A stretch of 64,000 nucleotides of DNA from positions 1 through 64,000 of the forward strand of contig JAUCBJ010001981.1 in the NCBI GenBank assembly GCA_032718475.1. The letters are read 5' to 3'. The notes under the pieces are model-generated. The model ran no database searches. It worked only from the letters and a program-made list of their open reading frames with translations, and was not told the origin of the DNA. Below are positions 131 to 43,500 of this stretch, piece after piece. Made by a program: the position numbers and the translations under genes. The DNA comes from Nemertoderma westbladi. Taxonomy: Eukaryota; Animalia; Xenacoelomorpha. The first letter of the stretch is position 1. Each line of letters begins with the position of its first letter.

Positions 131-2331
131 CTCACTAACTGAAGTTCATCTCGTACTCCTTACTTACTCCGCTCCACGTTGGTTCCACTCACTAACTGAA
201 GTTCATCTCGTACTCCTTACTTACTCCGCTCCACGTTGGTTCCACTCACTAACTGAAGTTCATATCGTACTCCTTAATTACTCCGCTCCACGTTGGTTCC
301 ACTCACTAACTGAAGTTCATCTCGTACTCCTTACTTACTGCACTCCACGTTGGTTCCACTCACTAACTGAAGTTCATCTCGTACTCCTTACTTACTCCGT
401 TCCACGTTGGTTCCACTCACTAACTGAAGTTCATCTCGTACTCCTTACTTACTCCGCTCCACGTTGGTTCCACTCACTAACTGAAGTTCATCTCGTACTC
501 CTTACTTACTCCGCTCCACGTTGGTTCCACTCCCTAACTGAAGTTCGTCTCGTACTCCTTACTTACTCCGCTCCACGTTGGTTCCACTCACTAACTGAAG
601 TTCATCTCGTACTCCTTACTTACTCCGCTCCACGTTGGTTCCACTCACTAACTGAAGTTCATATCGTACTCCTTAATTACTCCGCTCCACGTTGGTTCCA
701 CTCACTAACTGAAGTTCATCTCGTACTCCTTACTTACTGCACTCCACGTTGGTTCCACTCACTAACTGAAGTTCATCTCGTACTCCTTACTTACTCCGTT
801 CCACGTTGGTTCCACTCACTAACTGAAGTTCATCTCGTAATCCTTACTTACTCCGCTCCACGTTGGTTCCACTCACTAACTGAAGTTCATCTCGTACTCC
901 TTACTTACTCCGCTCCACGTTGGTTCCACTCCCTAACTGAAGTTCATCTCGTACTCCTTACTTACTCCGCTCCACGTTGGTTCCACTCACTAACTGAAGT
1001 TAATCTCGTACTCCTTACCTACTCCACTCCACGTTGGTTCCACTCACTAACTGAAGTTCATCTCGTACTCCTTACCTACTCCGCTCCACGTTGGTTCCAC
1101 TCACTAACTGAAGTTAATCTCGTACTCCTTACTTACTCCGCTCCACGTTGGTTCCACTCACTAACTGAAGTTCATCTCGTACTCCTTACTTACTCCGCTC
1201 CACGTTGGTTCCACTCACTAACTGAAGTTCATCTCGTACTCCTTAATTACTCCGCTCCACGTTGGTTCCACTCACTAACTGAAGTTAATCTCGTACTCCT
1301 TACTTACTCCGCTCCACGTTGGTTCCACTCACTAACTGAAGTTCATCTCGTACTCCTTACCTACTCCGCTCCACGTTGGTTCCACTCACTAACTGAAGTT
1401 CATCTCGTACTCCTTACTTACTCCGCTCCACGTTGGTTCCACTCACTAACTGAAGTTCATCTCGTACTCCTTACTTACTCCGCTCCACGTTGGTTCCACT
1501 CACTAACTGAAGTTCATCTCGTACTCCTTACTTACTCCGCTCCACGTTGGTTCCACTCACTAACTGAAGTTCATCTCGTACTCCTTACTTACTCCGCTCC
1601 ACGTTGGTTCCACTCACTAACTGAAGTTCATCTCGTACTCCTTACTTACTCCGCTCCACGTTGGTTCCACTCACTAACTGAAGTTCATCTCGTACTCCTT
1701 ACTTACTCCGCTTTCTGTACATTACATCTTTATCGTTGAGTCGGGCATTGTCACGCTCTCGGTAAAGTTGTACATGTACATAGTGTAATTACGTTTTATA
1801 TTGGTTTTAGGTTAGCGTAGTGTAATATTGTATTTGTAACCAAGTAACATAAAGGACCCCCTTGGAAATAAGCTGCAAAGCTTTAGGGGTAATCCTATAT
1901 GTTATGTTGGACAATACCTTTATACCGGTACATTGTTTGGTGTATTTGTTATTGTTTCTACATAATGTATAAATAAATCTATCTATCTATCCGCTCCACG
2001 TTGGTTCCACTCACTAACTGAAGTTCATCTCGTACTCCTTACTTACTCCGCTCCACGTTGGTTCCACTCACTAACTGAAGTTCATCTCGTACTCCTTACT
2101 TACTCCGCTCCACGTTGGTTCCACTCACTAACTGAAGTTCATCTCGTACTCCTTACTTACTCCGCTCCACGTTGGTTCCACTCACTAACTGAAGTTCATC
2201 TCGTACTCCTTACTTACTCCGCTCCACGTTGGTTCCACTCACTAACTGAAGTTCATCTCGTACTCCTTACCTACTCCGCTCCACGTTGGTTCCACTCACT
2301 AACTGAAGTTCATCTCGTACTCCTTACTTAC
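131..2331 (-). repeat. 57-bp minisatellite, about 34 copies, filling the start of protease intron 3
   Basis: Unit on the - strand is GTAAGTAAGGAGTACGAGATGAACTTCAGTTAGTGAGTGGAACCAACGTGGAGCGGA. The first unit begins at the donor after exon 2332-2419. Interrupted at 1713-1989. Confidence 0.97.
1713..1989 (+). mobile_element. 5'-truncated non-LTR retroelement 3' end (L2/CR1-group type) inserted in the 57-bp array
   Basis: Flanked by duplicated TCCGCT (1707-1712, 1990-1995). Ends in AATAAA followed by a (TCTA)n tail. Contains a stem-loop at 1854-1895. Confidence 0.75.
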
Positions 2332-4792
2332 CTGTGCCGCGTTGACATTGATAGTTTCCTCGTTTCCCTCGTTGTTGTAAAGGTGATGCTCCCCAACTAC
2401 TACTGTGATGCCACTAGTTCTGAAAATGAAAACCAATAAAACACTTTGTCAATACAAATATAATAATTTGATATTAATTATTTTCGAAATTAACAAATTC
2501 TGCTAAATTGTGGAGTTGAATAAAAAAAAAGAAATAAAAGTAACTCTTCACAGTTTTCTGGAAGGTTTGTAGTGTTTTCCCTATGTTTCACGGTTATTAC
2601 TTAAGGTGTGCTGTGCGAGGAGTACATTTATGAATACCAATTTGGAGTAGTGCATGACGTGTTAAATTTCCTGCTGATCAATATTTTCACTGTTTTCCTA
2701 GTGTTTTAATGGTGTTTTCCTAATATTGAACTATCTGTCAGACAATACCATACCAGAGCAGATCGGTCCACCGGCACCAGATCGGCCTACCGGTACCAGA
2801 TCGGCCTACCGCTACGCTACAATTTGATTCTAATCGATTTTGTGACGACCTATATACATACAAACAGAACAGATTTATATAAATTATACTGTCGATTAAT
2901 ACTCACGATTTGATACAATGAGCAGCAGTAACAACAACTTGAGGGTGTACCAAGGTGCCACCACACCAATGCCCGCCATACTGTAAAGTGATTTGCCAAG
3001 GATAAGAACCTGGAACGGCTTCAGATCCACCGACAATCCTTAAATTAACATCAGGTTTAATGGCAGGCACACCACAGCCAAGAGCCCCACCTGTAATTGA
3101 ATGCCACAAGCATTATAGAGCAGTGTGCAAAATCTTGGGTCTAAAATCGATCAGGTTCTCTGTTCGGAGAACAACGAACACATGGCCGACCATGTAGCTA
3201 GTCTGCCGGAGGAAGATGGAGATCATGGGTTTTCTAGGAGGAACCCTACCAGTAAGTAGTCCATGGGCCAGCAGGCGTTGTTTGGGATACTTAAAGGTAA
3301 AAAACCCATCTGGAATTGTATTTTTTGATAAACTTTTCTTTTGTTTTTTCATTTTGATATCGGTGAATCGGTAGCCACCAATACAACACCAAGTCAGTTA
3401 CCGATTCTTATGTGTTATCATATCAAAATGAAGGAAAAAAATCTGTTTAAAAAAATTAGATATATACCGTCTTGGACCATTGACTAAAGATATTCATTCC
3501 TAGTCCCCGCATAAAAATTAATAAAAATAATTTTTCCCATATTGTGTGAAGAGTTTACGGTTCTCTGTCGTCTGTCTACAAGCAATATGAGTGAGGTTTC
3601 CTAGCAACATGACATACATTTAGTATTAAAACTCACTACATTTTTCTCCCTAAAATTAATAACTTTGCGCAAAAAAAGTATTTTGTCTCTATAAATTTAA
3701 TTACTATCCGCAAAAAATGTATTTATTTTCCCTAGAAAGTAGCGTGAAAAAATTAATTTATTATCTCTAAAATTAACGAGAAATAATTTATTTATTCTCA
3801 CTTAATCTAGTTTATCTTTATTAATTAATAAATTTTTTCTCGCCACTTATAAGTATAATAAATTCATTTTTCACGCTATTTCTAGGAAGAATAAATTATC
3901 TTTGCATCTACAGTATATTTACCGGATATTGGTTTTAATAACGAGTTTCGTTTAATTCTATTTGAGATTTATCGAGTTTCATTTTCGGCCAATCAGAGCG
4001 TCCCAATCCTAGACCCCCGGTCGAACAGGATCTTGGCCCAACCAGGGTGTTGAGACTAAGGCTAAGGTGAGAGATGTCCCTATCGAGTATGGACGAGTTT
4101 CGTTTAATTCTATTTGAGATTTATCGAGTTTCAGTTACGGCCAATCAGAGCGTCCCAATCCTAGACCCCCGGTCCAACAGGATCTTGGCCCAACCAGGGT
4201 GTTGAGACTAAGGCTAAGGTGAGGGATGTCCGTATCGAGTATGGACGAGTTTCGTTTAATTCTATTTGAGATTTATCGAGTTTCAGTTACGGCCAATCAG
4301 AGCGTCCCAATCCTAGACCCCCGGTCCAACAGGATCTTGGCCCAACCAGGGTGTTGAGGCTAAGGCTAAGGTGAGGGATGTCCGTATCGAGTATGGACGA
4401 GTTTCGTTTAATTCTATTTGAGATTTATCGAGTTTCAGTTACGGCCAATCAGAGCGTCCCAATCCTAGACCCCCGGTCCAACAGGATCTTAGCCCAACCA
4501 GGGTGTTGAGGCTAAGGCTAAGGTGAGGGATGTCCCTATCGAGTATGGATCGCCCCTTGGGTCTAAAATTTGTGAGTGACCATACATTTGGCCTAATGTA
4601 TCTGTGGTCAAAAAAATCAGTAAAATCGTTAGAGCCGTTTCAAATTTGATCACTCACTCACTCAGTCAGTAACTCTTTGTCAACACGGTTATATTTTCTA
4701 GGATTCCTTACAGAAAATAAAAAGTAACCTGGCGGTTCCTAAGCATTGGAAAACTTACCAAGGAATAGAGTTATACCAATAAAAGACAGCAT
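2332..4792 (-). CDS. Trypsin/chymotrypsin-family (S1A) serine protease, 5' exons only; gene continues beyond the left edge
   Basis: Exons 4759-4792 (ATG, signal-peptide-like [12 protein letters not shown]), 2907-3090 (CGVPAIKP..R|IVGG activation site, WCGGTL, TAAHC catalytic His motif) and 2332-2419 ([15 protein letters not shown]). GT-AG boundaries with consistent phases 1,2,0. Catalytic Asp/Ser exons are not in the window. Confidence 0.9.
3941..4548. repeat. 152-bp tandem repeat, 4 copies, in protease intron 1
   Basis: ACGAGTTTCG recurs at 3941, 4093, 4245 and 4397. Each unit contains GGCCAATCAG. Followed by a (CACT)n microsatellite at about 4650. Confidence 0.95.
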
Positions 4793-6557: not shown

Positions 6558-7553
6558 ATGTCGAATTGGAAAGCATTGCAAGAAAAAATGGCGTTAGATA
6601 AGAAACCTCACTTAAAGGTGAAGAAGAGTCATCAAAGTATCACAAAATCGTCTCGGCAGCAGAAACAAACTGCATCAAAAAGAAGCATTGAGCCCGAAAT
6701 GTCCAGCGCTTTTAAGGGCTCAAATTATTCCAAGAGACGAAGATTCAACATGTCTGATCGGAATGGAGTTTCCATTCAATCAACCGATAAAGACGAGGAC
6801 GATTCTCTGTGGTTTCTGGACGATGTGAGTGTAGATGACATCGAGATGACATTAGGAGCTGAGGTTGCGAATCGCGCCCGTAAAAAACTAGCGCTGGGAG
6901 GTACCGGTAGCTGCACCGTGTCGAATAATACTGAATCGAAGGTAGTTGTAGATACTACTATCGGTACATTAAAGGTAGGCCTACCTTGTAAAGGGACTGA
7001 CTTGGTGACAGATAGCAGATACATCGGTTTAGATTGTGAGATGGTGGGAACTGGTGCTGAAGGAAAGGATAATATGCTAGCTCGCGTCTCATTGGTTGAC
7101 TCGGAGGGCCGTTGTATTTACGATAAATACGTTAAACCGCGAGATATCGTTACTGATTACCGAACCAACGTCAGCGGAATATCGAGAGAGACTTTAGTGA
7201 ACGCTGAGCCCTTCGAAAGAGTTCAGAAAGAAGTGTCGGACCTCATTAACAATAGGATTCTAGTCGGTCACTCTATAGGCAACGACTTGAAGGTTCTGCT
7301 ACTTTCCCATCCAAAGAACCGAATTCGTGATACACAAAATTTCAAACCCTTTAGGGATCGAAGTAAAACGGATAAACCATCGCTTAGCAAACTGGCCAAG
7401 ATTTACTTACGTACGACTATCCATACTCGTATAAAGTCCCACGACAGTGTGGAGGACGCCCGAGTGGCGATGTCTCTGTACAGACTGGTGCGCAAGGATT
7501 GGGAATCACTGAATAAATCATTTAAAGTTAAACATCGCAGGAAACCCAGATGA
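6558..7553 (+). CDS. REXO4: RNA exonuclease 4 (DEDDh), intronless
   Basis: N-terminal SNWKALQE motif, then DCEMVG, LARVSLV, YRTNVSGI, GHSIGNDLKVL and HDSVEDA. First in-frame ATG at 6558; AATAAA at about 7690. Confidence 0.92.
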   Translation: MSNWKALQEKMALDKKPHLKVKKSHQSITKSSRQQKQTASKRSIEPEMSSAFKGSNYSKRRRFNMSDRNGVSIQSTDKDEDDSLWFLDDVSVDDIEMTLGAEVANRARKKLALGGTGSCTVSNNTESKVVVDTTIGTLKVGLPCKGTDLVTDSRYIGLDCEMVGTGAEGKDNMLARVSLVDSEGRCIYDKYVKPRDIVTDYRTNVSGISRETLVNAEPFERVQKEVSDLINNRILVGHSIGNDLKVLLLSHPKNRIRDTQNFKPFRDRSKTDKPSLSKLAKIYLRTTIHTRIKSHDSVEDARVAMSLYRLVRKDWESLNKSFKVKHRRKPR

Positions 7554-8091
7554 GAACCATATTCTTCTATATAGTTCCAATTATTATTTTGTTTAGCCCT
7601 CACTCCCACCTCGTTATCTACAGTTGTTGTAGTTATACAACCTTGTGTAATGTGATTGATTAAATAATATATATATAAAGTTACCATTGAAATAAATTTA
7701 ATTTAAAGACGAACTTTCTTTCGTGAAATTTTTAAAATTAAAGGAATTTATATCGAGTGTTTATCACTACACCCTCTTTTTAATACCAAAATAATAGGCC
7801 AATACAAGATTATTTAATAACTAATAATATGTATAACTAAATAAATTATATTCTGTTAGTATTTACATTGCTTATGAATTATAGTACCATAATTAATTAA
7901 TTACCATAATTTTTCATTACAGTTCATTGTTGATGCTCATAGATATATCAAAAACTTCTATCAGTTTGGTTATTTAGGAAATATTAAATAAACTGGCAGA
8001 CTGGCTACATATTATTAACTTAAATTTATAATGACGGCCAGACGATTTTACTAATAAAGGTTTATTTACAATAACCAAATCAAAGATTGAC

Positions 8092-9369
8092 ATGTGGTTA
8101 TTTGAATTATTTTCTAATCTGATGGCCCAGAACCAAGTGTTTGGGGGCGGTTGCGGGCTGGCCGGTCTCGGAATGGCGGGGATGGCCGCCAAGAGACTAG
8201 CCAATCTGGGCGGGGTGGCCGCGAAGAGGCGCTACCAACTCCAGCTGGAGGTAACCAGTCGGGACAAGAGCTACCAATGGGTGTTGCTATGGGTGACCCG
8301 TACCGCTACCAGCACCCAGCACCTGAGTGTTGAGACCCGATATAGCCAGACGGACTCAGGCAGGGTGCACACCACGTTCGAACTGGTGCCCAGCCCAGGT
8401 ACCCACTTCTTTTGGTACCAAAATAAAATCCTAACAGTGGAGAGAACTCGAGAGAAACAACTGATCGATTTGCAACGATCTATTCCTTTCGAAACTGTCG
8501 TTCTCACCACATGGGGCCGCGATAAATCGTTATTTATCGATATTTTAGAGGAAGCTAGAAAGGAAGCTTTATTACTTACTGAGGGTTTTACTTTAACTTA
8601 CGTTGCAGTTGGTGGACACGAGTGGCGTTCTATAGGAGAACCCCGGACTATTCGTCCTTTGAGTTCGGTCGTTTTATCCGCCGGGGTCTCGGAGAGTTTA
8701 GTTTCCGACGTGCGGGAATTCCTCGAGTCTTCCCGATGGTATCTGGACCGCGGGATTCCGTACCGCAGGGGTTACCTCCTGTACGGGCCGCCAGGCTGTG
8801 GTAAGACGAGTTTCGTAACGGCGCTCGCCGGGGCGATTAACTACTCGATTTGCACGCTGAATGTAGGGGATCCCAGTATGACGGACGATAGATTAGCTCA
8901 TCTACTAACCGCGGCTCCGAGGGACAGTTTAATTCTTCTCGAAGACATCGACGCCGCCGGGGTTTACCGTCCTAGCAACAACGCTACAGACGAACTCCGT
9001 TACCAAGGACTCACACGACTCACCTTCAGCGGTTTACTCAACGCGTTAGATGGGGTCACTTCCTCGGACGGACGACTTCTCTTTATGACGACCAACTTCG
9101 TAGAGCGATTGGACCCGGCGATAATCCGTCCGGGTCGTGTCGACGTCCGCCAGTCTATCGGGTTCGCCTCCCCGGAAGTCGTCGTCGCGATGTTCGCCAA
9201 CTTCTACCCGACGGCTCATCCCGAACTCCCGTTGCGTTTCGCCGCCGCCGTTGTCGGCCCAGGTACCGGTTTATCGGCAGCCCAACTTCAGTCCCATTTA
9301 TTGAACTATAAAGACGACCCCGAAGGAGCCGTTACTAATGCCGCTAACGTTCATAAACAAACATCGTAG
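8092..9369 (+). CDS. BCS1L: Mitochondrial chaperone BCS1 (AAA ATPase), intronless
   Basis: N-terminal NQVFGGG..L..G and BCS1_N region, WY..RGIPYRRGYLLYGPPGCGKTS (Walker A), LLEDID (Walker B), TFSGLLNALDG, RPGRVD. Confidence 0.96.
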   Translation: MWLFELFSNLMAQNQVFGGGCGLAGLGMAGMAAKRLANLGGVAAKRRYQLQLEVTSRDKSYQWVLLWVTRTATSTQHLSVETRYSQTDSGRVHTTFELVPSPGTHFFWYQNKILTVERTREKQLIDLQRSIPFETVVLTTWGRDKSLFIDILEEARKEALLLTEGFTLTYVAVGGHEWRSIGEPRTIRPLSSVVLSAGVSESLVSDVREFLESSRWYLDRGIPYRRGYLLYGPPGCGKTSFVTALAGAINYSICTLNVGDPSMTDDRLAHLLTAAPRDSLILLEDIDAAGVYRPSNNATDELRYQGLTRLTFSGLLNALDGVTSSDGRLLFMTTNFVERLDPAIIRPGRVDVRQSIGFASPEVVVAMFANFYPTAHPELPLRFAAAVVGPGTGLSAAQLQSHLLNYKDDPEGAVTNAANVHKQTS

Positions 9370-10546: not shown

Positions 10547-10659
10547 CTTATCGTCTGCGTAAACAAGCAGTGTCTGTTGGTTGTTATACAGTATCTTTTG
10601 TATCAGATGATGTCGAACCATAATAATTAATCCATAAAAAAAAATCCAAAAAAAAAAAT

Positions 10660-11091: not shown

Positions 11092-13534
11092 ATGGCAGGG
11101 ACATCCCCAGAGAGGCCCCCTACCGGTCCCGACAGGAACAAAGCCAGAGTTACAAACGAACCCGCGAAGCGGAAAAAAGGTAAATTTGGAGTAGCTGGTT
11201 AAATATATACTTTAGCCCTTTGCGTAACAACACTTATAAAGGTGGCACACTGCCGCCGTTTTCATTCTAAATAATTGAGGCTCATGCTCATAAAGGCGGC
11301 AGTGTGCCGCCTTTATATAATTATAACTTAACCCCCAGGGCGACAGTGTGCCGCCTTTATATAATTATAACTTAACCCCCAGGGCGGCAGTGTGCCGCCT
11401 TTATATAATTATAACTTAACCCCCAGGGCGGCAGAGTGCCGCCTTTGCAGATTTTATCCTGACCCTTTATTTAAAACCTCTTATAACTATTGGGGCGGAA
11501 AAATGGAGTTCATATTCGAGTAGGGCAGGAAAAACTGGTCTGGAAAAGTTCATTTAATATTGATGATCCGATATATTTATATCGGAGAAAAACTTGCAAG
11601 TAAAATTCCAACTACAGATAGACCCGTGGCCACATTCCTGAAAAACCCAACCCTAAATTCAATGTTTTTGGATACCATTTCTGAAAATGATTTACTGAAA
11701 TGTGCAATGTCTTTGAATAATAAAAAGTCAATCGGGCTTGATGGCGTTGATCCAGTATTAGCACGGTCAGCACTTCCAAAAATTGCAACTCCCTTAACGC
11801 ACATAATTAATTTATCTTTACTCACAGGTGTTGTGCCAGACCAATTAAAATGCGCTAAAGTTGTACCAGTATTTAAAAGGGGTAATAAAAATATAATAAC
11901 AAACTATCGTCCAATTAGCGTACTACCATATTTCTCAAAAATCCTTGAAAAAATTGTAAGCATACAACTCCTCGAATTTATTAAAAGAGAAAAAATATTA
12001 ACCTCAAAACAGTTTGGCTTCCAAACTAAAAAATCAACTGAAACTGCGCTTTCATCTCTGTTACATGACCTTTTGACTGAAAACGAGAATAATAATATCA
12101 CTGTGGGTCTGTTCCTGGACCTCTCTAAGGCGTTTGATACTGTCAACCATAAAATATTAATTCAAAAACTCGAACACTACGGTATTCGTGGGACGCCTTT
12201 GGATTGGTTCAGGAGCTACCTAACAGATCGTCGGCAAAAAGTGCTATTTAAATCGACCCTATCAAATTCTAGTACAATAACTTGTGGCGTTCCACAAGGG
12301 TCTATTCTTGGACCGGTACTATTTCTGATTTATATTAATGATATTACAGAATGTTCATCCATTCTAAATTTTGTTCTTTTTGCCGATGACACGAATATTT
12401 TCCACTCAGGATCTGACTTAAATATACTCATAGATCAACTTAACAGCGAATTACTTAATATATATAAATGGCTTGCAACAAATAAACTATCCCTAAATTT
12501 AGATAAAACTAAGTTTATAATATTTTCTACTAAACAATACAGCTGGGCAAACAAACACATTTTGATTAACGGAAACTTAATCGAAAAAGTAAATGAAATG
12601 AAATTTCTTGGAATTATTATAAGTAGTGATTTAAAATGGAACAAGCATATTCAATACATACGACTAAAAATAGCTAAAAATGTGGGAATTCTTGGTAAAC
12701 TTAAACATTTCATCCCGTACAAAATTCGCCTGACATTATACCACACACTGATCCGCCCATATCTCACATTCGCACTTACGGTATGGGGCAATGGTGCCAG
12801 TTCAAATAGTACAGCTACAAATTCATTACTTATTTTACAAAAAAGGGCAATTCGCTACATACACTTAAAACATTCACAATACCATACAGAGGAACTCATG
12901 AAAACCCAGAACGAATTAACACTATCTAATATATATAAATATCAATGTTTACTTTTCATGTACAAATCTATTAATGGAAAACTAGATCTTCCAGAAAATT
13001 TAAAATCTATTTTAATAGTAAATCGACAGTTTCACAATTACAACACTCGTACAATGTACAATATTCATCTTCCTCTATATCGCAAATCATTAACTCAAAC
13101 TGCAGTAACTTACCAAGGCCCACTATACTGGAATGACCTTCTCCCTGAAATACGCAGATCTCCTACATTAAATCAATTCAAAAATAATCTCAAAAAAGAA
13201 TTACTGACTTCCCAACACAAGGTAAACAAATAAAATACAGTATCTACTGTACATAAGCATAGATATTGTTCAATAAGGAATAAACAAAGACTGCCGAACA
13301 GTGTAATACCAAAATACCAATGAGACATAACTTTATTATTTTATAAGCTTTTTAAGTGCCAAATAAGCTTGCTTCCGGCACCTTAACTAGCACGTTGGTA
13401 CCAGGGGGGGGGGGGGGGGGGGGTGTAGTTTTTTTTTTTTTATATTAATTGCATGTTATAATTATTCACTAAACATTATACAACGAATATTAAAGGCTTG
13501 GGCGGGCCGCTAAACCGTGCCTTATTATTATTAT

Positions 13535-13570
<36 letters not shown>

Positions 13571-28500: not shown

Positions 28501-31500
28501 TTACTGGTAGGTGGATGGCTTACCGGTAGGTGGATGGCTTACCGGTAGGTGGATGGCTTACCGGTAGTTGGATGGCTTACCGGTAGGTGGATGCCGTACC
28601 AGTAGTTGCGAGGTGGATGGCTTACTGGTAGGTGGATGGCTTACCGGTAGGTGGATGGCTTACTGGTAGTTGGATGGCTTACTGGTAGGTGGATGCCGTA
28701 CCAGTAGTTGCGAGGTGAATGGCTTACCGGTAGGTGGATGGCTTACTGGTAGGTGGATGGCTTACCGGTAGGTGGATGGCTTACCGTTAGGTGGATGGCT
28801 TACTGGTAGGTGGATGGCTTACCGGTAGGTGGATGGCTTACCGGTAGGTGGATGGCTTACTGGTAGGTGGATGGCTTACTGGTAGGTGGATGGCTTACCG
28901 GTAGGTGGATGCCGTACCAGTAGTTGCGAGGTGGATGGCTTACTGGTAGGTGGATGGCTTACCGTTAGGTGGATGGCTTACCGGTAGTTGGATGGCTTAC
29001 CGGTAGGTGGATGCCGTACCGGTAGTTGCGAGGTGAATGGCTTACTGGTAGGTGGGTGGCTTACCGGTAGGTGGATGGCTTACTGGTAGGTGGATGGCTT
29101 ACCGGTAGGTGGATGGCTTACCGTTAGGTGGATGGCTTACTGGTAGGTTGATGGCTTACCGGTAGGTGTATGGCTTACCGGTAGATGGGTGCCGTACCAG
29201 TAGTTGCGAGGTGGATGGCTTACTGGTAGGTGGATGGCTTACCGTTAGGTGGATGGCTTACCGGTAGTTGGATGGCTTACCGGTAGTTGCGAGGTGGATG
29301 GCTTACTGGTAGGTGGATGGCTTACCGTTAGGTGGATGGCTTACCGGTAGTTGGATGGCTTACCGGTAGTTGCGAGGTGGATGGCTTACTGGTAGGTGGA
29401 TGGCTTACCGGTAGGTGGATGGCTTACCGGTAGCTGGATGGCTTACCGGTAGGTGGATGCCGTACCGGTAGTTGCGAGGTGAATGGCTTACCGGTAGGTG
29501 TATGGCTTACTGGTAGGTGGATGGCTTACCGGTATATGTATGGCTTACCGAGGTGGATGGCTTACTGGTAGGTGGATGGCTTACCGGTAGGTGGATGGCT
29601 TACCGGTAGGTGGATGGCTTACTGGTAGGTGGATGGCTTACTGGTAGGTGGATGCCGTACCAGTAGTTGCGAGGTGAATGGCTTACCAGTAGGTGGATGG
29701 CTTACCGGTAGGTGGATGGCTTACTGGTAGGTGGATGCCGTACCAGTAGTTGCGAGGTGAATGGCTTACCGGTAGGTGGATGGCTTACTGGTAGGTGGGT
29801 GGCTTACCGTTAGGTGGATGGCTTACTGGTAGGTGGATGGCTTACCGGTAGGTGGATGGCTTACCGGTAGGTGGATGGCTTACCGGTAGGTGGATGGCTT
29901 ACTGGTAGGTGGATGGCTTACTGGTAGGTGGATGCCGTACCGGTAGTTGCGAGGTGAATGGCTTACCGGTAGGTGAATGGCTTACCGGTAGGTGAATGGC
30001 TTACTAGTAGGTGGGTGGCTTACCGGTAGGTGGATGGCTTACCGGTAGGTGGATGGCTTACCGATAGGTGGATGGCTTACTGGTAGGTGGATGGCTCACT
30101 GGTAGGTGGATGGCTTACCGGTAGGTGGATGGCTTACCGGTAGGTGGATGCCGTACCGGTAGTTGCGAGGTGAATGGCTTACCGGTATGTGAATGGCTTA
30201 CCGGTAGGTGGATGGCTTACTGGTAGGTGGATGGCTTACCGGTAGGTGGATGGCTTACTGGTAGGTGGATGGCTTACCGGTAGGTGGATGGCTTACCGGT
30301 AGGTGGATGGCTTACTGGTAGGTGGATGGCTTACTGGTAGGTGGATGGCTTACCGGTAGGTGGATGGCTTACCGGTAGGTGGATGCCGTACCGGTAGTTG
30401 CGAGGTGAATGGCTTACCGGTAGGTGAATGGCTTACCGGTAGGTGGATGGCTTACCGGTAGGTGGATGGCTTACTGGTAGGTGGATGGCTTACCGGTAGG
30501 TGGATGGCTTACTGGTAGGTGGATGGCTTACCGGTAGGTGGATGGCTTACCGGTAGGTGGATGGCTTACCGGTAGGTGGATGGCTTACTGGTAGGTGGAT
30601 GGTTTACTGGTAGGTGGATGGCTTACCGGTAGGTGGATGGCTTACCGGTAGGTGGATGCCGTACCAGTAGTTGCGAGGTGGATGGCTTACTGGTAGGTGG
30701 ATGGCTTACCGTTAGGTGGATGGCTTACCGGTAGGTGGATGGCTTACCGGTAGGTGGATGCCGTACCGGTAGTTGCGAGGTGAATGGCTTACCGGTAGGT
30801 GAATGGCTTACCGGTAGGTGGATGGCTTACCGGTAGGTGGATGGCTTACTGGTAGGTGGATGGCTTACCGGTAGGTGGATGGCTTACTGGTAGGTGGATG
30901 GCTTACCGGTAGGTGGATGGCTTACCGGTAGGTGGATGGCTTACCGGTAGGTGGATGGCTTACTGGTAGGTGGATGGCTTACTGGTAGGTGGATGGCTTA
31001 CCGGTAGGTGGATGGCTTACCGGTAGGTGGATGCCGTACCGGTAGTTGCGAGGTGAATGGCTTACTGGTAGGTGGGTGGCTTACCGGTAGGTGGATGGCT
31101 TACTGGTAGGTGGGTGGCTTACCGAGGTGGATGGCTTACTGGTAGGTGGATGGCTTACCGGTAGGTGGATGGCTTACCGGTAGGTGGATGGCTTACCGGT
31201 AGTTGGATGGCTTACCGGTAGGTGGATGCCGTACCAGTAGTTGCGAGGTGGATGGCTTACTGGTAGGTGGATGGCTTACCGGTAGGTGGATGGCTTACTG
31301 GTAGTTGGATGGCTTACTGGTAGGTGGATGCCGTACCAGTAGTTGCGAGGTGAATGGCTTACCGGTAGGTGGATGGCTTACTGGTAGGTGGATGGCTTAC
31401 CGGTAGGTGGATGGCTTACCGTTAGGTGGATGGCTTACTGGTAGGTGGATGGCTTACCGGTAGGTGGATGGCTTACCGGTAGGTGGATGGCTTACTGGTA

Positions 31501-34500
31501 GGTGGGTGGCTTACCGGTAGGTGGATGCCGTACCGGTAGTTGCGAGGTGAATGGCTTACTGGTAGGTGGGTGGCTTACCGGTAGGTGGATGGCTTACTGG
31601 TAGGTGGATGGCTTACCGGTAGGTGGATGGCTTACCGTTAGGTGGATGGCTTACTGGTAGGTGGATGGCTTACCGGTAGGTGTAGGGCTTACCGGTAGAT
31701 GGGTGCCGTACCAGTAGTTGCGAGGTGGATGGCTTACTGGTAGGTGGATGGCTTACCGTTAGGTGGATGGCTTACCGGTAGTTGGATGGCTTACCGGTAG
31801 TTGCGAGGTGGATGGCTTACTGGTAGGTGGATGGCTTACCGTTAGGTGGATGGCTTACCGGTAGCTGGATGGCTTACCGGTAGGTGGATGCCGTACCGGT
31901 AGTTGCGAGGTGAATGGCTTACCGGTAGGTGGATGGCTTACTGGTAGGTGGATGGCTTACCGGTATATGTATGGCTTACCGAGGTGGATGGCTTACTGGT
32001 AGGTGGATGGCTTACCGGTAGGTGGATGGCTTACCGGTAGGTGGATGGCTTACCGGTAGGTGGATGGCTTACTGGTAGGTGGATGGCTTACTGGTAGGTG
32101 GATGCCGTACCAGTAGTTGCGAGGTGAATGGCTTACCGGTAGGTGGATGGCTTACCGGTAGGTGGATGGCTTACTGGTAGGTGGATGCCGTACCAGTAGT
32201 TGCGAGGTGAATGGCTTACCGGTAGGTGGATGGCTTACTGGTAGGTGGGTGGCTTACCGTTAGGTGGATGGCTTACTGGTAGGTGGATGGCTTACCGGTA
32301 GGTGGATGGCTTACCGGTAGGTGGATGGCTTACCGGTAGGTGGATGGCTTACTGGTAGGTGGATGGCTTACTGGTAGGTGGATGCCGTACCGGTAGTTGC
32401 GAGGTGAATGGCTTACCGGTAGGTGAATGGCTTACCGGTAGGTGAATGGCTTACTAGTAGGTGGGTGGCTTACCGGTAGGTGGATGGCTTACCGGTAGGT
32501 GGATGGCTTACCGATAGGTGGATGGCTTACTGGTAGGTGGATGGCTTACTGGTAGGTGGATGGCTTACCGGTAGGTGGATGGCTTACCGGTAGGTGGATG
32601 CCGTACCGGTAGTTGCGAGGTGAATGGCTTACCGGTATGTGAATGGCTTACCGGTAGGTGGATGGCTTACTGGTAGGTGGATGGCTTACCGGTAGGTGGA
32701 TGGCTTACTGGTAGGTGGATGGCTTACCGGTAGGTGGATGGCTTACCGGTAGGTGGATGGCTTACTGGTAGGTGGATGGCTTACTGGTAGGTGGATGGCT
32801 TACCGGTAGGTGGATGGCTTACCGGTAGGTGGATGCCGTACCGGTAGTTGCGAGGTGAATGGCTTACCGGTAGGTGAATGGCTTACCGGTAGGTGGATGG
32901 CTTACCGGTAGGTGGATGGCTTGCTGGTAGGTGGATGGCTTACCGGTAGGTGGATGGCTTACTGGTAGGTGGATGGCTTACCGGTAGGTGGATGGCTTAC
33001 CGGTAGGTGGATGGCTTACCGGTAGGTGGATGGCTTACTGGTAGGTGGATGGCTTACTGGTAGGTGGATGGCTTACCGGTAGGTGGATGGCTTACCGGTA
33101 GGTGGATGCCGTACCAGTAGTTGCGAGGTGGATGGCTTACTGGTAGGTGGATGGCTTACCGTTAGGTGGATGGCTTACCGGTAGGTGGATGGCTTACCGG
33201 TAGGTGGATGCCGTACCGGTAGTTGCGAGGTGAATGGCTTACCGGTAGGTGAATGGCTTACCGGTAGGTGGATGGCTTACCGGTAGGTGGATGGCTTACT
33301 GGTAGGTGGATGGCTTACCGGTAGGTGGATGGCTTACTGGTAGGTGGATGGCTTACAGGTAGGTGGATGGCTTACCGGTAGGTGGATGGCTTACCGGTAG
33401 GTGGATGGCTTACTGGTAGGTGCATGGCTTACTGGTAGGTGGATGGCTTACCGGTAGGTGGATGGCTTACCGGTAGGTGGATGCCGTACCGGTAGTTGCG
33501 AGGTGAATGGCTTACTGGTAGGTGGGTGGCTTACCGGTAGGTGGATGGCTTACTGGTAGGTGGGTGGCTTACCGTTAGGTGGATGGCTTACTGGTAGGTG
33601 GATGGTTTACCGTTAGGTGGATGGCTTACTGGTAGGTGGGTGGCTTACCGTTAGGTGGATGGCTTACTGGTAGGTGGATGGCTTACCGGTAGGTGGATGG
33701 CTTACCGGTAGGTGGATGGCTTACCGGTAGGTGGATGGCTTACTGGTAGGTGGATGGCTTACCGGTAGGTGGATGGCTTACCGTTAGGTGGATGGCTTAC
33801 CGGTAGGTGGATGCCGTACCAGTAGTTGCGAGGTGAATGGCTTACCGGTAGGTGAATGGCTTACCGGTAGGTGAATGGCTTACTAGTAGGTGGGTGGCTT
33901 ACCGTTAGGTGGATGGCTTACTGGTAGGTGGATGGCTTACCGGTAGGTGGATGGCTTACCGGTAGTTGGATGGCTTACCGGTAGGTGGATGCCGTACCGG
34001 TAGTTGCGAGGTGAATGGCTTACCGGTAGGTGAATGGCTTACCGGTAGGTGAATGGCTTACTAGTAGGTGGGTGGCTTACCGTTAGGTGGATGGCTTACT
34101 GGTAGGTGGATGGCTTACCGGTAGGTGGATGGCTTACCGGTAGGTGGATGGCTTACCGGTAGGTGGATGGCTTACTGGTAGGTGGATGGCTTACTGGTGG
34201 GTGGATGGCTTACCGGTAGGTGGATGGCTTACCGGTAGGTGGATGCCGTACCAGTAGTTGCGAGGTGGATGGCTTACTGGTAGGTGGATGGCTTACCGTT
34301 AGGTGGATGGCTTACCGGTAGTTGGATGGCTTACCGGTAGGTGGATGGCTTACTGGTAGGTGGATGGCTTACCGTTAGGTGGATGGCTTACCGGTAGTTG
34401 GATGGCTTACCGGTAGGTGGATGCCGTACCGGTAGTTGCGAGGTGAATGGCTTGCTGGTAGGTGGATGGCTTACCGGTAGGTGGATGGCTTACCGTTAGG

Positions 34501-37500
34501 TGGATGGCTTACCGGTAGTTGGATGGCTTACCGGTAGGTGGATGCCGTACCGGTAGTTGCGAGGTGAATGGCTTGCTGGTAGGTGGGTGGCTTACCGTTA
34601 GGTGGATGGCTTACTGGTAGGTGGATGGCTTACCGGTAGGTGGATGGCTTACCGGTAGGTGGATGGCTTACCGGTAGGTGGATGGCTTACTGGTAGGTGG
34701 ATGGCTTACTGGTAGGTGGATGGCTTACCGGTAGGTGGATGGCTTACCGGTAGGTGGATGCCGTACCAGTAGTTGCGAGGTGGATGGCTTACTGGTAGGT
34801 GGATGGCTTACCGTTAGGTGGATGGCTTACCGGTAGTTGGATGGCTTACCGGTAGGTGGATGGCTTACTGGTAGGTGGGTGGCTTACCGTTAGGTGGATG
34901 GCTTACCGGTAGGTGGATGGCTTACCGGTAGGTGGATGGCTTACCGGTAGGTGGATGGCTTACCGGTAGGTGGATGCCGTACCAGTAGTTGCGAGGTGGA
35001 TGGCTTACTGGTAGGTGGATGGCTTACCGTTAGGTGGATGGCTTACCGGTAGTTGGATGGCTTACCGGTAGGTGGATGGCTTACTGGTAGGTGGATGGCT
35101 TACTGGTAGGTGGATGGCTTACCGGTAGGTGGATGGCTTACCGGTAGGTGGATGCCGTACCGGTAGTTGCGAGGTGAATGGCTTACTGGTAGGTGGGTGG
35201 CTTACCGTTAGGTGGATGGCTTACCGGTAGGTGGATGGCTTACTGGTAGGTGGATGGCTTACCGGTAGGTGGATGGCTTACCGGTAGGTGGATGCCGTAC
35301 CAGTAGTTGCGAGGTGGATGGCTTACTGGTAGGTGGATGGCTTACCGTTAGGTGGATGGCTTACCGGTAGGTGGATGGCTTACCGGTAGGTGGATGGCTT
35401 ACCGGTAGGTGGATGCCGTACCGGTAGTTGCGAGGTGAATGGCTTACTGGTAGGTGGGTGGCTTACCGTTAGGTGGATGGCTTACTGGTAGGTGGATGGC
35501 TTACCGGTAGGTGGATGGCTTACCGGTAGGTGGATGGCTTACTGGTAGGTGGATGGCTTACCGTTAGGTGGATGGCTTACCGGTAGTTGGATGGCTTACC
35601 GGTAGGTGGATGCCGTACCGGTAGTTGCGAGGTGAATGGCTTACTGGTAGGTGGGTGGCTTACCGAGGTGGATGGCTTACTGGTAGGTGGATGGCTTACC
35701 GGTAGGTGGATGGCTTACTGGTAGGTGGATGGCTTACCGTTAGGTGGATGGCTTACCGGTAGTTGGATGGCTTACCGGTAGGTGGATGCCGTACCGGTAG
35801 TTGCGAGGTGAATGGCTTACTGGTAGGTGGGTGGCTTACCGTTAGGTGGATGGCTTACCGTTAGGTGGATGGCTTACCGTTAGGTGGATGGCTTACCGGT
35901 AGGTGGATGGCTTACTGGTAGGTGGATGGCTTACCGTTAGGTGGATGGCTTACCGGTAGTTGGATGGCTTACCGGTAGGTGGATGCCGTACCGGTAGTTG
36001 CGAGGTGAATGGCTTACTGGTAGGTGGGTGGCTTACCGAGGTGGATGGCTTACTGGTAGGTGGATGGCTTACCGGTAGGTGGATGGCTTACTGGTAGGTG
36101 GATGGCTTACCGTTAGGTGGATGGCTTACCGGTAGTTGGATGGCTTACCGGTAGGTGGATGCCGTACCGGTAGTTGCGAGGTGAATGGCTTACTGGTAGG
36201 TGGGTGGCTTACCGTTAGGTGGATGGCTTACCGTTAGGTGGATGGCTTACCGTTAGGTGGATGGCTTACCGTTAGGTGGATGGCTTACCGGTAGGTGGAT
36301 GGCTTACCGGTAAGTGGATGGCGTACTGGTAGGTGGATGGCTTACTGGTAGGTGGATGGCTTACCTGGATGGGGGATTATCTGATTAACATCATAACCAT
36401 AATGTATTTTGTTATAGTTGTTAATGTTATTTTTTGTCCAACTACAGTAAAACCGGTAACCTACCTGCGCAAAGCAGTCTGTCAGACATGTTACTTCATA
36501 ATCTATTTGGTTATAGTTGATTTTTTGTTTTTGAAATTCTAATTTATTACTATACCCTCCGATAGTAAGACGGATTTTTGTCTTACTTCCGATTTTTGTT
36601 TTCAGTTTTAGAAGAAAAAATGAAACGGCAACTGGCGTCGGTTGATGAGGAACGTAAGTCGATGCAAGAATTGGTTGCTAAGCTGGACGCCAGTATGAGG
36701 GATCAAAATAGATCAATGGAACAGGAAAGATGGAATCTTACACAGGAACAAAATAGGTTGGCAAACATACCACTGGGAATACACGGAATCTTACACAGGA
36801 ACAAAATAGGTTGGCAAATATACCACTGGGCATACACGGAATCTTACACAGGAACAAAATAGGTTGGCAAATATACCACTGGGCATACACGGAATCTTAC
36901 ACAGGAACAAAATAGGTTGGCAAACGTACCACTGGGAATACACGGAATCTTACACAGGAACAACAAACATACCACTGGGAATACACGGAATCTTACACAG
37001 GAACAAAATAGGTTGGCAAACATACCACTGGAAATACACGGAATCTTACACAGGAACAAAATAGGTTGGCAAACATACCACTGGAAATACACGGAATCTT
37101 ACACAGGAACAAAATAGGTTGGCAAATATACCACTGGGCATACACGGAATCTTACACAGGAACAAAATAGGTTGGCAAACGTACCACTGGGAATACACGG
37201 AATCTTACACAGGAACAAAATAGGTTGGCAAACATACCACTGGGAATACACGGAATCTTACACAGGAACAAAATAGGTTGGCAAACATACCACTGGGCAT
37301 ACACGGAATCTTACACAGGAACAACAAACATACCACTGGGAATACACGGAATCTTACACAGGAACAAAATAGGTTGGCAAACATACCACTGGAAATACAC
37401 GGAATCTTACACAGGAACAAAATAGGTTGGCAAACGTACCACTGGAAATACACGGAATCTTACACAGGAACAAAATAGGTTGGCAAACATACCACTGGGC

Positions 37501-40500
37501 ATACACGGAATCTTACACAGGAACAAAATAGGTTGGCAAACGTACCACTGGAAATACACGGAATCTTACACAGGAACAAAATAGGTTGGCAAACATACCA
37601 CTGGGCATACACGGAATCTTACACAGGAACAAAATAGGTTGGCAAACATACCACTGGGAATACATGGAATCTTACACAGGAACAAAATAGGTTGGCAAAC
37701 GTACCACTGGAAATACACGGAATCTTACACAGGAACAAAATAGGTTGGCAAACGTACCACTGGAAATACACGGAATCTTACACAGGAACAAAATAGGTTG
37801 GCAAACATACCACTGGGCATACACGGAATCTTACACAGGAACAAAATAGGTTGGCAAACATACCACTGGAAATACACGGAATCTTACACAGGAACAAAAT
37901 AGGTTGGCAAACATACCACTGGGCATACACGGAATCTTACACAGGAACAAAATAGGTTGGCAAACGTACCACTGGGAATACACGGAATCTTACACAGGAA
38001 CGAAATAGGTTGGCAAACATACCACTGGGAATACATGGAATCTTACACAGGAACAAAATAGGTTGGCAAACATACCACTGGGAATACATGGAATCTTACA
38101 CAGGAATAAAATAGGTTGGCAAACATACCACTGGAAATACACGGAATCTTACACAGGAATAACAAACATACCACTGGGAATACACGGAATCTTACACAGG
38201 AACAAATTAGGTTGGTAAACATACCACTGGGCATACACGGAATCTTACACAGGAAAAAAATAGGTTGGCAAACGTACCACTGGGAATACACGGAATCTTA
38301 CACAGGAACGAAATAGGTTGGCAAACATACCACTGGGAATACATGGAATCTTACACAGGAACAAAATAGGTTGGCAAACATACCACTGGGAATACATGGA
38401 ATCTTACACAGGAACAAAATAGGTTGGCAAACATACCACTGGAAATACACGGAATCTTACACAGGAATAACAAACATACCACTGGGAATACACGGAATCT
38501 TACACAGGAACAAATTAGGTTGGTAAACATACCACTGGGAATACATGGAATCTTACACAGGAACAAAATAGGTTGGCGAACGTACCACTGGAAATACACG
38601 GAATCTTACACAGGAACAAAATAGGTTGGCAAACATACTACTGGGAATACATGGAATCTTACACAGGAACAACAACCATACCACTGGGAATACACGGAAT
38701 CTTACACAGGAACAAATTAGGTTGGCAAACATTCCACTGGGCATACACGGAATCTTACACAGGAACAAAATAGGTTGGCAAACATACCACTGGGAATACA
38801 TGGAATCTTACACAGGAACAAAATAGGTTGGCAAACATACCACTGGGAATACATGGAATCTTACACAGGAACAAAATAGGTTGGCAAACATACCACTGGG
38901 AATACATGGAATCTTACACAGGAATAACAAACATACCACTGGGAATACACGGAATCTTACACAGGAACAAATTAGGTTGGTAAACATACCACTGGGAATA
39001 CATGGAATCTTACACAGGAACAAAATAGGTTGGCAAACATACCACTGGGAATACATGGAATCTTACACAGGAATAACAAACATACCACTGGGAATACACG
39101 GAATCTTACACAGGAACAAATTAGGTTGGTAAACATACCACTGGGAATACATGGAATCTTACACAGGAACAAAATAGGTTGGCAAACATACCACTGGGAA
39201 TACATGGAATCTTACACAGGAATAACAAACATACCACTGGGAATACACGGAATCTTACACAGGAACAAATTAGGTTGGTAAACATACCACTGGGAATACA
39301 TGGAATCTTACACAGGAACAAAATAGGTTGGCAAACATACCACTGGGAATACATGGAATCTTACACAGGAATAACAAACATACCACTGGGAATACACGGA
39401 ATCTTACACAGGAACAAATTAGGTTGGTAAACATACCACTGGGAATACATGGAATCTTACACAGGAACAAAATAGGTTGGCAAACATACCACTGGGAATA
39501 CATGGAATCTTACACAGGAATAACAAACATACCACTGGGAATACACGGAATCTTACACAGGAACAAATTAGGTTGGTAAACATACCACTGGGAATACATG
39601 GAATCTTACACAGGAACAAAATATGTTGGCAAACATACCACTGGGAATACACGGAATCTTACACAGGAACAAATTAGGTTGGTAAACATACCACTGGAAA
39701 TACACGGAATCTTACACAGGAACAAAATAGGTTGGCAAACATACCACTGGGAATAAATGGAATCTTACACAGGAACAAAATAGGTTGGCAAACATACCAC
39801 TGGGAATACATGGAATCTTACACAGGAATAACAAACATACCACTGGGAATACACGGAATCTTACACAGGAACAAATTAGGTTGGTAAACATACCACTGGG
39901 AATACATGGAATCTTACACAGGAACAAAATAGGTTGGCAAACATACCACTGGGAATACATGGAATCTTAAACAGGAATAACAAACATACCACTGGGCATA
40001 CACGGAATCTTACACAGGAACAAAATAGGTTGGCAAACATACCACTGGGAATACATGGAATCTTACACAGGAACAAAATAGGTCGGCAAACATACCACTG
40101 GGAATACATGGAATCTTACACAGGAATAACAAACATACCACTGGGAATACACGGAATCTTACACAGGAACAAATTAGGTTGGTAAACATACCACTGGGAA
40201 TACATGGAATCTTACACAGGAACAAAATAGGTTGGCAAACTTACCACGGGAATACACGGAATCTTACACAGGAACAAAATAGGTTGGCAAACATACCACT
40301 GGGAATACACGGAATCTTACACAGGAACAAAATAGGTTGGCAAACATACCACTGGAAATACATGGAATCTTACACAGGAATAACAAACATACCACTGGGA
40401 ATACACGGAATCTTACACAGGAACAAAATAGGTTGGCAAACATACCACTGGGAATACACGGAATCTTACACAGGAACAAAATAGGTTGGCAAACATACCA

Positions 40501-43500
40501 CTGGAAATAACGGAATCTTACACAGGAACAAAATAGGTTGGCAAGCGTACCACTGGAAATACATGGAATCTTACACAGAAACAAGATAGGTTGGCAAACA
40601 TACCACTGGGAATACACGGAATCTTATACAGGAACAAAATAGGTTGGCAAACATACCACTGGAAATAACGGAATCTTACACAGGAACAAAATAGGTTGCA
40701 AGCATACCACTGGGAATACACGGAATCTTACACAGGAACAAAATAGGTTGGCAAACATACCACTGGGAATACATGGAATCTTACACAGGAACAAATTAGG
40801 TTGGCATATAGGATAAATAAGATGGCAAATAGGATACCACCTGGAATACACATTTCACAGCTCCTATAGCGAACCTTTTCTTTTTTTTATTTGTTTTTCA
40901 TGTCTAACTGTTTGGTTTTATTTTTTAGGGCTAGGGCAACCCAAATTGCATTGGATGATGCAAGACAGACACTGGCGGACCAATCGGCTGTTGAAAGGCG
41001 AGAAATTGAGAAAAACAAGGAGAGTTTGTTGGTGGAACAGAGAGAATTGATGCAGCAGATGTACAAGGAGAGACGGGAATTAGCTGAGGAAAGAGCGAGA
41101 TTGATCGCCTTGAAAACTGATCAGGTTAGTGGAGGGAAAGCGGGAGTGGAGAGTGGAGGACAAAGCGTTATTTATTGACTTGAAAGCATTGGAAAGAATG
41201 GTATTTATTGAAGAAATAGCGTGATTGATTGCATTTTAGAATTATGAGGGGTGAGGTACTGGTACATATGGAACTGAGTGAGATTGTGGGAGATGTACAA
41301 TGAAAGAGTTGAGTGTGATGCATAATAATCAGATGGGGTTGAAATTGTTTTTGCTCAAATTAGAAGGATTCCTCACCAGTTACATATGTTATTAAATGTC
41401 ATCAATGATTGATATTTGTTTTATTTTGTTACTCTGCAGAAGAAATTAATGGATGATGAAAGTTCACGTTATTCCGTAACAGAAGCTCATTTAGAAGGAA
41501 CATTGAAGGCGATAGGAAGGGAACAGGAAAGTTTAGCCAATCAGCTGGCCGATCTGCGAGTTCAAAAGGAACAACTCGAAACAGATAAAAAGTTAGAGCG
41601 AAAAGTTGCAATGAATATATATCACTAAAATATCACTGCCACTTTTATAAGTTGTTATATTATGTTATTGTTGAGGATACAGTTACATAATTATATTAAT
41701 TAATTATCGTAGGCCATTTACGATAATTTAATTTATTTTCATATGAACAAGATGAAAAATTTCTTCATTATTATTAAACCCGTTTAACACGTTAGTGTGG
41801 GAGCAAAACCATGTGTTGGGCCGTTAATGCGTTATGTGCACCGGTGCGCATTGTATGGCATTCCTGCTTGTGCGAACATAAATTCCTTGGTTTTGACACT
41901 TGGTGCGATTTGCGCACCATTTTAATCATTGGAGTTAATTGTTTCGCATACTATTTTCGGACATTTAAACTGTCCATTGTTTGTCTTTTTTTCTGTTCGT
42001 CACAGCAAAAACTTTGATGCCATAAAGTCTGGCTACATTTGCACTACTTTTTTTTTATTTGAAATGCCTGTGTCACCGCAAATATGATCAAATTGTTTTT
42101 GCCCTACTTTTTGTAATAATTATAGGAATCTGATATTAATTAACGACCCCCAGGTGTTTAACTTTGTACGTACGTACGATACAATGCACTCTGAAGGTTA
42201 GGCCTCTTTCATAGTTCCTGTCGCCAATGAGAATCTGGCTACTGCTATTTTGTTATATTTTACGTTGCATTCTAATAACAATAGCGTATTTCTTGGTAAG
42301 TGTAACTGATTATATTACACCTTACACCTGATCACTTCAAATTTCTCATTGAAACATTGCAATGACCTCATATTTGAGCTCCGGTGCTCATAACAACATT
42401 TGACACAAACTGGGCTTTGGGCACCGGTGCGCATTCCGCATTAGTTATTTCCTGTGTGACATAAGTTGACGCCATGGAAACCATATATGACGTCAGTTTT
42501 TTATAAAAAAAATGACGTATGAATTACGTCACTATACACATCCGCACTACGGGTAAACACTAATTTTTCCACCCACATTTCAGGACTGCACAAGGAATGC
42601 GCACCGGTGCTCAAACCGCATTTTCTATCCGATTGGCTATCCGATTAACGGGAATGTTTGAAATGCGCACCGGTGCCCATTTTGCACTAAACGTGTTAAA
42701 CTGAACTTATTTTTAACAATTTTAATATTTCTTCTCAGCGGATGCAGAATGTTAAAAGTTCTAGCTACTTCATTTTGTTCTTTCCAGGAACTTAGAGATT
42801 GAAAGACAGACTTTAGATTCTATGAAAGTACATCTCCAACAGCAAGATGTTGACCTGAAGAATAGACTGCGAGAAATTAACGACACTGCTGAAAGCGTCC
42901 AGGCGGCTCGAAAACAGTCCGCAGAAGCAGTGAGTGAAGCTAAACGAATAGAAAGCGAATACACACAGAGAATGGACTCAATTGCTCAGCAAATACAACT
43001 CCTTAGGTTAGCTTGGGTCTCAATCCAAATTATTTTACTGGTAAAATAAAGCTTATTTTTGTGATACATAATGTGAAGGCCTACCAACATTATTATTTTG
43101 TAATATTAAACATAAAAGTCGAACAGCTGTAAACATTATTTTCATGAATATTTTTTCATATTACATTATTATATATATAATTTTGAATATCTTTCAAATA
43201 ATTTGTATTACAGATATTTACTGTAAACTAATATACAGTGTCTGTAATGTAATTTACGTCGATCGGTACGACCTGCATTAAGGTAGACATCCTACACACA
43301 TGTACTACATACACCCTTCCCCACCGGCCACCCCAATTACTTATATTATAGGCAGCTACAGTTAGCTAATTATTACTAATTACTTTACTAATTAATGATG
43401 AACCGGAGAAGATCCATCCAAATCATTAGCTCCCTTCACTTTGCATCACATAAAGACTTATTTCTATTTTGTTTTTTATTACTCTTTTTTTTGTTTCCAG

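Follow-up and report, generated by a model that had tools for sequence, protein, structure and literature searches.

Minisatellites that begin at an exon–intron junction and reiterate the 5' splice site (donor) have been described in humans and in lancelets. The variable number tandem repeat (VNTR) in intron 7 of human F7 has a 37-bp unit present in 5–9 copies, and the study, which used 50 constructs, reports that the identical downstream donors are functional yet unused, the most upstream one being chosen (Borensztajn et al. 2006, PMC1557585). The same paper lists further donor VNTRs in the interferon-inducible gene 6-16 (25 pseudo-sites), CBS intron 13 (15–20 copies), LMNB2 (100-bp unit, 10–15 copies) and PDGF intron 4 (81-bp unit, 16–18 copies). 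In lancelets, two papers place "mirage" minisatellites in Adh3, troponin C, the globins BflGb6 and BflGb9, and PGBD5; these repeats are found at both 5' and 3' boundaries, leave splicing undisturbed, and are said to be of unclear origin (Ebner et al. 2010, PMC3087553; PMC3902484). Here we analyze a 64,000-nt stretch of Nemertoderma westbladi DNA (contig JAUCBJ010001981.1, positions 1 to 64,000; hereafter the window), in which four multi-kilobase minisatellites start at predicted donors, one in a protease gene and three in FBF1. The pattern had first been picked out by a reading of the letters alone (the original prediction), which recognized no named system in it; however, the same architecture is on record in the F7, 6-16, CBS, LMNB2 and PDGF VNTRs and in the lancelet mirages (PMC1557585, PMC3087553, PMC3902484). 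The architecture is thus already known, and is extreme here in size and crowding. We consider it probable that the four arrays are tolerated junction duplications that were enlarged by ordinary array turnover.

Array 1, called like the others by Tandem Repeats Finder (TRF), lies on the minus strand (130–2331, 2.2 kb), comprises ~34 true units of 57 bp, and starts at donor position +1. The other three arrays are on the plus strand: array 2 (20697–22868, 2.2 kb) has ~128 copies of a 17-bp unit (TRF 127.8) followed by 178 nt of unique intron; array 3 (27094–36365, 9.3 kb) has ~460–468 units of 19 bp, each made of 8 nt of exon and 11 nt of intron, followed by 240 nt of unique intron; and array 4 (36732–40806, 4.1 kb, TRF) has ~79 units of 53 bp, made of 25 nt of exon and 28 nt of intron. 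In all four, the modeled donor sits in the first unit and in transcript sense: CAG/GTAAGT (minus strand), CAA/GTAAGT, CCG/GTAGGT and TAG/GTTGGC, where the slash marks the exon–intron boundary and the hexamers after it are those originally given. The units were also correctly described as mutually unrelated, since a blastn-short search with the array units matched nothing at E≤0.05 except the array from which the unit was taken; a common origin of the four arrays from one mobile unit is rejected on this lack of cross-matches.

The arrays differ in how much of the exon they take up. That they start exactly at the donor and extend only into the intron is true of arrays 1 and 2, whose units share 0 and 1 nt with the exon end, but not of arrays 3 and 4, which share 8 and 25 nt: in the latter two, the first unit crosses the exon–intron boundary and the exon nucleotides are identical in the copies. 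The first unit of array 1 has no exon overlap and so does not span the junction, and the single exon nucleotide held in common in array 2 is obtainable by chance. Judged by junction-spanning, arrays 3 and 4 are predicted to be of the mirage/F7 type, and arrays 1 and 2 would work alike without being strict members. Two traits of that type are seen here, namely a splice signal in many but not all units, and tandem-repeat turnover within the arrays.

The authentic donor hexamer is present in 26/33, 103/127, 319/460 and 52/79 parsed units of arrays 1–4, respectively (66–81%), which is most units, although the claim that nearly every unit carries it was overstated. The complete donor nine-mer (−3 to +6) occurs once each in arrays 1 and 2, 184 times in array 3 and 53 times in array 4. 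Arrays 3 and 4 thus reproduce the donor in full. In arrays 1 and 2 only its intronic half is repeated, and because no more than 0–1 nt of exon is carried along, all copies there are weaker than the authentic donor. Expressed as U1 pairs out of 11, by comparison with the U1 consensus, the array 1 copies (GGA/GTAAGT) score 7/11 versus 10/11 at the real donor, and the array 2 copies (CTA/GTAAGT) 8/11 versus 9/11.

Like the human donor VNTRs, arrays 3 and 4 contain the junction in the first unit, and all four arrays reiterate the donor in sense into the intron and keep the real donor most upstream; unlike the human VNTRs, the arrays have 34–468 copies, span 2–9 kb and occur three to one gene, and two of them take only 0–1 nt of exon and have copies weaker than the real donor. 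With the lancelet mirages they share the occurrence of several unrelated junction repeats, units within 10–160 bp, and repeat turnover; the differences are that arrays are seen only at donors here, and that the copies are far more numerous, BflGb6 having 3–6 units. The donor is present in up to ~468 copies, as opposed to 3–25 in the published accounts consulted, and a single gene holds three of the arrays; as such, they constitute a hard natural test of first-donor choice.

Several features bear on the internal history of the arrays. Each contains 14–36 distinct unit types, and higher-order blocks of 5, 9, 19 and 6 units recur; array 3 includes variant units of 26 nt as well as recurrent blocks that reach 19 units, and array 4 includes 14 units of 43 nt that lack the donor, as well as a degenerate copy beyond its distal end. 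Array 1 is broken by a unique insertion of 278 nt (1713–1990) with an (ATCT)n tail on the plus strand and a 5–6-nt flanking duplication. The insertion is single-copy in the window and is likely the 3' end of a truncated retroelement. The varied units, the blocks, the insertion and the degenerate distal copy point to real, evolving arrays. The repeated blocks and the insertion show turnover and age. Behind the three FBF1 arrays, 122–240 nt of unique intron are left, and since this is all the unique sequence that remains, the FBF1 introns in question were formerly short.

The gene models that place the donors are all predicted, and comprise 18 donors and 17 acceptors in the window. Array 1 lies, judging by sequence, in a minus-strand gene for an elastase-like protease. 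One exon (2907–3040, minus strand; its 5' limit is not fixed) encodes the IVGG start and the His-motif region (Pfam Trypsin 1–46, E = 1e-15) and ends in the donor TC/GTGAGT, where there is no array. The exon that ends at the array 1 donor (2332–2419, minus strand) has a weak match to elastase residues 55–76 (E = 0.06), and the next protease exon lies beyond the window edge.

The FBF1 model (18884–55181, plus strand) is based on reading frame, Pfam and homologues and has 17 exons, the first and last of which are tentative; the three arrays account for 15,519 of its 36,298 nt (43%). A 15-exon model that uses the first donor at every array reads through 790 codons without a stop. The exon that ends at the array 2 donor (20581–20697) does so in phase 2, which is the phase of the next exon at 23047. 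This junction is gap-free in 4 of 9 homologues, and is uninformative since the region is poorly conserved. The exon that ends at the array 3 donor (26854–27101), the exon between arrays 3 and 4 (36606–36756) and the exon after array 4 (40929–41124) match Pfam FBF1 positions 101–181, 184–232 and 236–292, respectively, such that the positions are continuous over both coiled-coil junctions. The first two of these exons are also backed by homologues: among 37 HMMER matches, the array 3 junction is gap-free within 6 residues in 28 of the 31 that cover it, and the array 4 junction in 26 of 26. A word-index search with the exon before array 3 against longer proteins gave 0 of 225 candidates at E≤1, and an exact 30-nt pattern from the same exon was found in no stretch among metagenome contigs. 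We favor the view that the first donor of each array is the authentic splice site, as predicted from frame and homology.

The FBF1 model (790 codons plus the tentative first exon, 18884–19637) is shorter than most of the long homologues (~1050–1450 aa); N-terminal exons are possibly missing or lost, and the donor count may be slightly low. Donors usually conform to a GTR consensus, against which GTT donors are unusual. Eight of the 18 modeled donors (19637–53813) start with GTT: GTTGGT (three times), GTTAGT, GTTAGA, GTTAGC, GTTGGC and GTTTGA, of which the one at 41591 had been chosen to preserve frame. This is possibly a lineage-specific donor preference.

How, then, could arrays of this size be accommodated at splice sites? 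We propose the following sequence of events: (i) slippage or repair would duplicate 17–57 nt around a donor; (ii) 5'-to-3' choice of the first site, as seen in the human F7 experiments, would keep the mRNA correct, and leakage to a downstream copy would result in a frameshift or stop followed by degradation; (iii) unequal exchange or slippage would expand and homogenize the units, turning introns of ~150–260 nt into introns of 2.3–9.5 kb; and (iv) homogenization would reach the GT and stop at the exon, which is protected by selection, such that older arrays appear to begin exactly at the donor. The arrays are likely to be harmless because no copy lies upstream of the real donor, and the first donor in line is the one expected to be spliced. 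That arrays 1 and 2 start right at the GT would need no special process either, because homogenization would spare the selected exon.

The reading frames agree with the second step. In arrays 1–4, the first in-frame stop lies 30, 1, 20 and 103 nt into the intron, and none of the downstream copies keeps an open frame (0/38, 0/127, 0/467 and 0/79 cut pieces); some of the 38 pieces of array 1 derive from the insertion, yet the stop there comes before any second copy. Because no downstream copy keeps the frame open, leaks would be non-productive and their products likely degraded. Productive alternative donors, as had been suggested for the copies, are rejected on the same ground. Within the units, mutation events fall in the donor nine-mer in 3/11, 6/14, 18/31 and 6/29 cases (arrays 1–4; all binomial P>0.15 in both directions, at low power), so that in this low-power test the donor is not seen to be conserved above the rest of the unit in any of the four arrays. 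The same events, with the same low power, give no significant sign that pseudo-donors are purged. Variants that destroy the donor have spread: in array 3, 47 units share a +1 G>T change and 53 carry a 7-nt insertion, and in array 4 a 10-nt deletion is present in 14 units. Together, the spread of the mutations and the donor-loss variants give a picture of neutral turnover.

Some observations weigh against tolerated duplication as the full account. Pure tolerance predicts no excess of arrays at donors, and there are four against 0.3 expected, including all four of the longest; tolerance alone leaves this excess over the intron interior unexplained. Seven GT sites in array 3 and 21 in array 4 pair with U1 better than the real donor does, and splicing in 6-16 and CBS is reported to draw on the nearest pseudo-donors as well (PMC1557585). 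The last 19 nt of the array 1 unit resemble the exon end at P = 0.07–0.12 only, which concerns the exon-decay step, and the donor mutation test, as noted, had low power. Use of the first donor at these arrays is itself a prediction from the models above. A further candidate, rolling-circle copying of a small lariat, was prompted by the array starts at +1/−1 and rejected by reasoning: two of the arrays contain exon, and a lariat loop of 17 nt seems too small.

The excess at donors was evaluated within the window. TRF returned 35 rows, from which the non-coding arrays with a period of at least 10 made up a set of 18; four of these start at a donor and none at an acceptor, with 0.28 expected at donors (P(≥4) = 0.9–1.3 × 10−4). 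Two other nulls, in which the 30-bp array discussed below was added or exon interiors were left out, gave P = 1.3 × 10−4 and 2.5 × 10−4, and the expected number ranges over 0.28–0.35. These and all other P values were computed without correction for the window having been picked for its donor-array pattern out of a very large scan of some 250,000 windows. The original count of 4 of 20 donors becomes 4 of 18 modeled donors, with 0 of 17 acceptors; no donor/acceptor asymmetry is demonstrated thereby, because zero acceptor arrays has a null probability of 0.75. The four donor arrays are also the longest four of the 18 (P = 3 × 10−4; among the nine inside split genes, P = 8 × 10−3), and are the only non-coding arrays over 0.7 kb in the window.

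Five arrays exceed 1 kb by TRF, with units of 57, 17, 19, 53 and 30 bp. The statement that every non-coding array over 1 kb is at a donor stands if the 30-bp array (45007–46683, plus strand) is coding; if it is counted as non-coding, 4 of the 5 arrays over 1 kb are at donors (P = 6 × 10−6). This array falls within an open reading frame (ORF) of 746 codons, which we regard as plausibly coding from its sequence. The ORF is a nested single exon (44729–46969, plus strand) in a 9.6-kb FBF1 intron, and has an N-terminal hydrophobic helix, a basic stretch, ~56 copies of a 10-residue repeat and, near its end, the PY motifs LPSY and PPVY. It showed no frame-specific synonymous bias, no atlas match at 0.9 or above, and no convincing relative. 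The motif TTACCGGTA is present in both the 19-bp and the 30-bp units. Away from modeled junctions, an array of four 152-bp units (3941–4549, plus strand; 98% identical) contains AAG/GTGAG on the plus strand, for which no matching exon was found.

An alternative that would account for the excess is mutagenesis coupled to the donor, in which a polymerase pause, an R-loop on a G-rich non-template strand, or break repair at the 5' splice site seeds or speeds the arrays, which would themselves be functionless. The enrichment (P = 1–2.5 × 10−4 over the nulls) and the length ranking speak for it, as do the start of two arrays at most 1 nt from the GT and the sense-strand G skew of +0.42, +0.21 and +0.47 in arrays 1–3. 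In addition, positions +7 to +46 of array-free introns are richer in G than the interior (0.24 versus 0.18, Wilcoxon P = 0.04, n = 12). On the other hand, the G skew of array 4 is 0.0, the G excess at intron starts is driven largely by two introns and is accompanied by a G+C difference of P = 0.23 only, the 14 other donors have no seed duplication (best 14-mer match 7–9 of 14), and the case comes from a single window picked by hand. We regard such coupling as unlikely, though it is the most serious competitor to tolerated duplication. The wider claim that the 5' splice site is a mutational hotspot in this lineage that seeds kilobase duplications, and that donors are a main engine of intron growth (the 43% of FBF1 noted above, with donor-anchored arrays alone reaching several kb), seems to us similarly doubtful. 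It is plausible that arrays arise or grow somewhat more readily near intron starts, and we treat this as a lead only. Within the window, the excess supports the original proposal that a recurrent process seeds or tolerates tandem amplification at donors, and the human F7 experiments (PMC1557585) are a direct precedent for tolerance.

A second alternative is that the extra donors are selected as a platform for U1 small nuclear ribonucleoprotein (snRNP), which would protect against intronic polyadenylation, help to define the exon that precedes the array, or provide decoys that tune expression by array length, and would license the kilobase size. U1-dependent suppression of polyadenylation (telescripting) is established for long genes (Kaida 2010, Berg 2012, as described in PMC7544216). 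The arrays resemble its targets in placing many potential U1 sites on what would be a long pre-mRNA, and they differ in that the sites give no indication of being under selection and that poly(A) signals are nearly absent: AATAAA/ATTAAA occurs 0, 0, 0 and 2 times in arrays 1–4, versus 54 times (3.0 per kb) in other FBF1 intron totaling 18,155 nt. A selected role would fit the uniform sense orientation, the retention of the hexamer, the donor anchoring of all non-coding arrays over 0.7 kb, the GT sites of arrays 3 and 4 that pair U1 better than the real donor, and the reported use of the nearest copies in 6-16 and CBS. It is at odds with donor positions that are not conserved (at low power) and donor-loss variants that have spread, with introns that were short before expansion, and with the longest FBF1 intron (9615 nt), which has no donor array; moreover, GT sites with 4–7/11 U1 pairs are likewise present in unrelated arrays and in the units when read in antisense. 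The predicted RNA structure of three arrays is within ~1.2 standard deviations (SD) of 30 shuffled-unit controls, and that of array 3 is ~2 SD more stable. We judge a selected U1 role improbable, and the functions originally put forward, decoys and telescripting among them, find no support, given the closed frames of the downstream copies, donor positions that are not seen to be conserved, the spread of loss variants, the scarcity of poly(A) hexamers and the array-free 9615-nt intron.

Slightly less probable still is that arrays arise anywhere in introns and that the window was noticed because four happened to lie on donors. With ~250,000 windows scanned, P ~1 × 10−4 is reachable; however, four multi-kilobase genic arrays are not expected in most windows, and the size ranking of the donor arrays is a second signal. 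Finally, mis-assembly as the source of the arrays or of their lengths is hardly credible, for although indel errors in this region are suggested by the break in the ECD frame near 16750, the 14–36 unit types per array, the structured higher-order blocks, the unique insertion with its flanking duplication, the degenerate distal copy and the intact flanking exons all argue against it.

The distinction between tolerated duplication and a process acting at donors matters beyond this locus: a donor-specific excess that was true genome-wide would mean that splicing is connected with local instability of the DNA and with the growth of introns, and if there were none, the arrays would be ordinary tolerated repeats. 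A genome-wide test of donor enrichment was not among the titles or abstract openings searched, a coverage that leaves out most subscription journals. In humans, repeat length has been linked to splicing, and the accessible parts of that study contain no donor-anchoring test (PMC10078293).

The remainder of the window is animal DNA that, as judged from its sequence, has no close relative among the proteins compared; BCS1, for instance, reaches no more than 55% identity with any of the 120 matches listed, and 52% with that of Branchiostoma floridae. Intronless genes occur beside the intron-rich ones, all on the plus strand: a probable REX4-like exonuclease (6561–7553; Pfam RNase_T), BCS1 (8092–9369) and ECD/SGT1 (15527–17525). 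The last is present in two frames that overlap at 16698–16760 (Pfam 1–266 and 371–566), and the split may reflect an indel in the assembly, a very short intron or a genuine frameshift.

A long interspersed nuclear element (LINE) reverse-transcriptase ORF (11524–13230, Pfam RVT_1), whose tail consists of (TTA)n and poly(A), lies within 11295–13750. It is flanked by a 44-bp array at 11295 and, as seen by eye, by more copies of the array motif near 13670–13750, as if the LINE had inserted into another repeat. On the minus strand, long retroelement-like ORFs extend over 57249–63400 (57249–60308, 59995–60930, and others to ~63400), and were read by eye as being of the long terminal repeat (LTR) type. 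Outside the arrays, the palindrome TACCGGTA occurs 10 times versus ~0.5 expected, ACCGGT 22 versus 7, and AGGCCT 19 versus 6. Homopolymers of G or C of ~12–25 nt are located at 5889, 13405, 25191, 43779, 44262, 53378 and 55520–55620, and one such run lies a few nucleotides past the donor at 25184.

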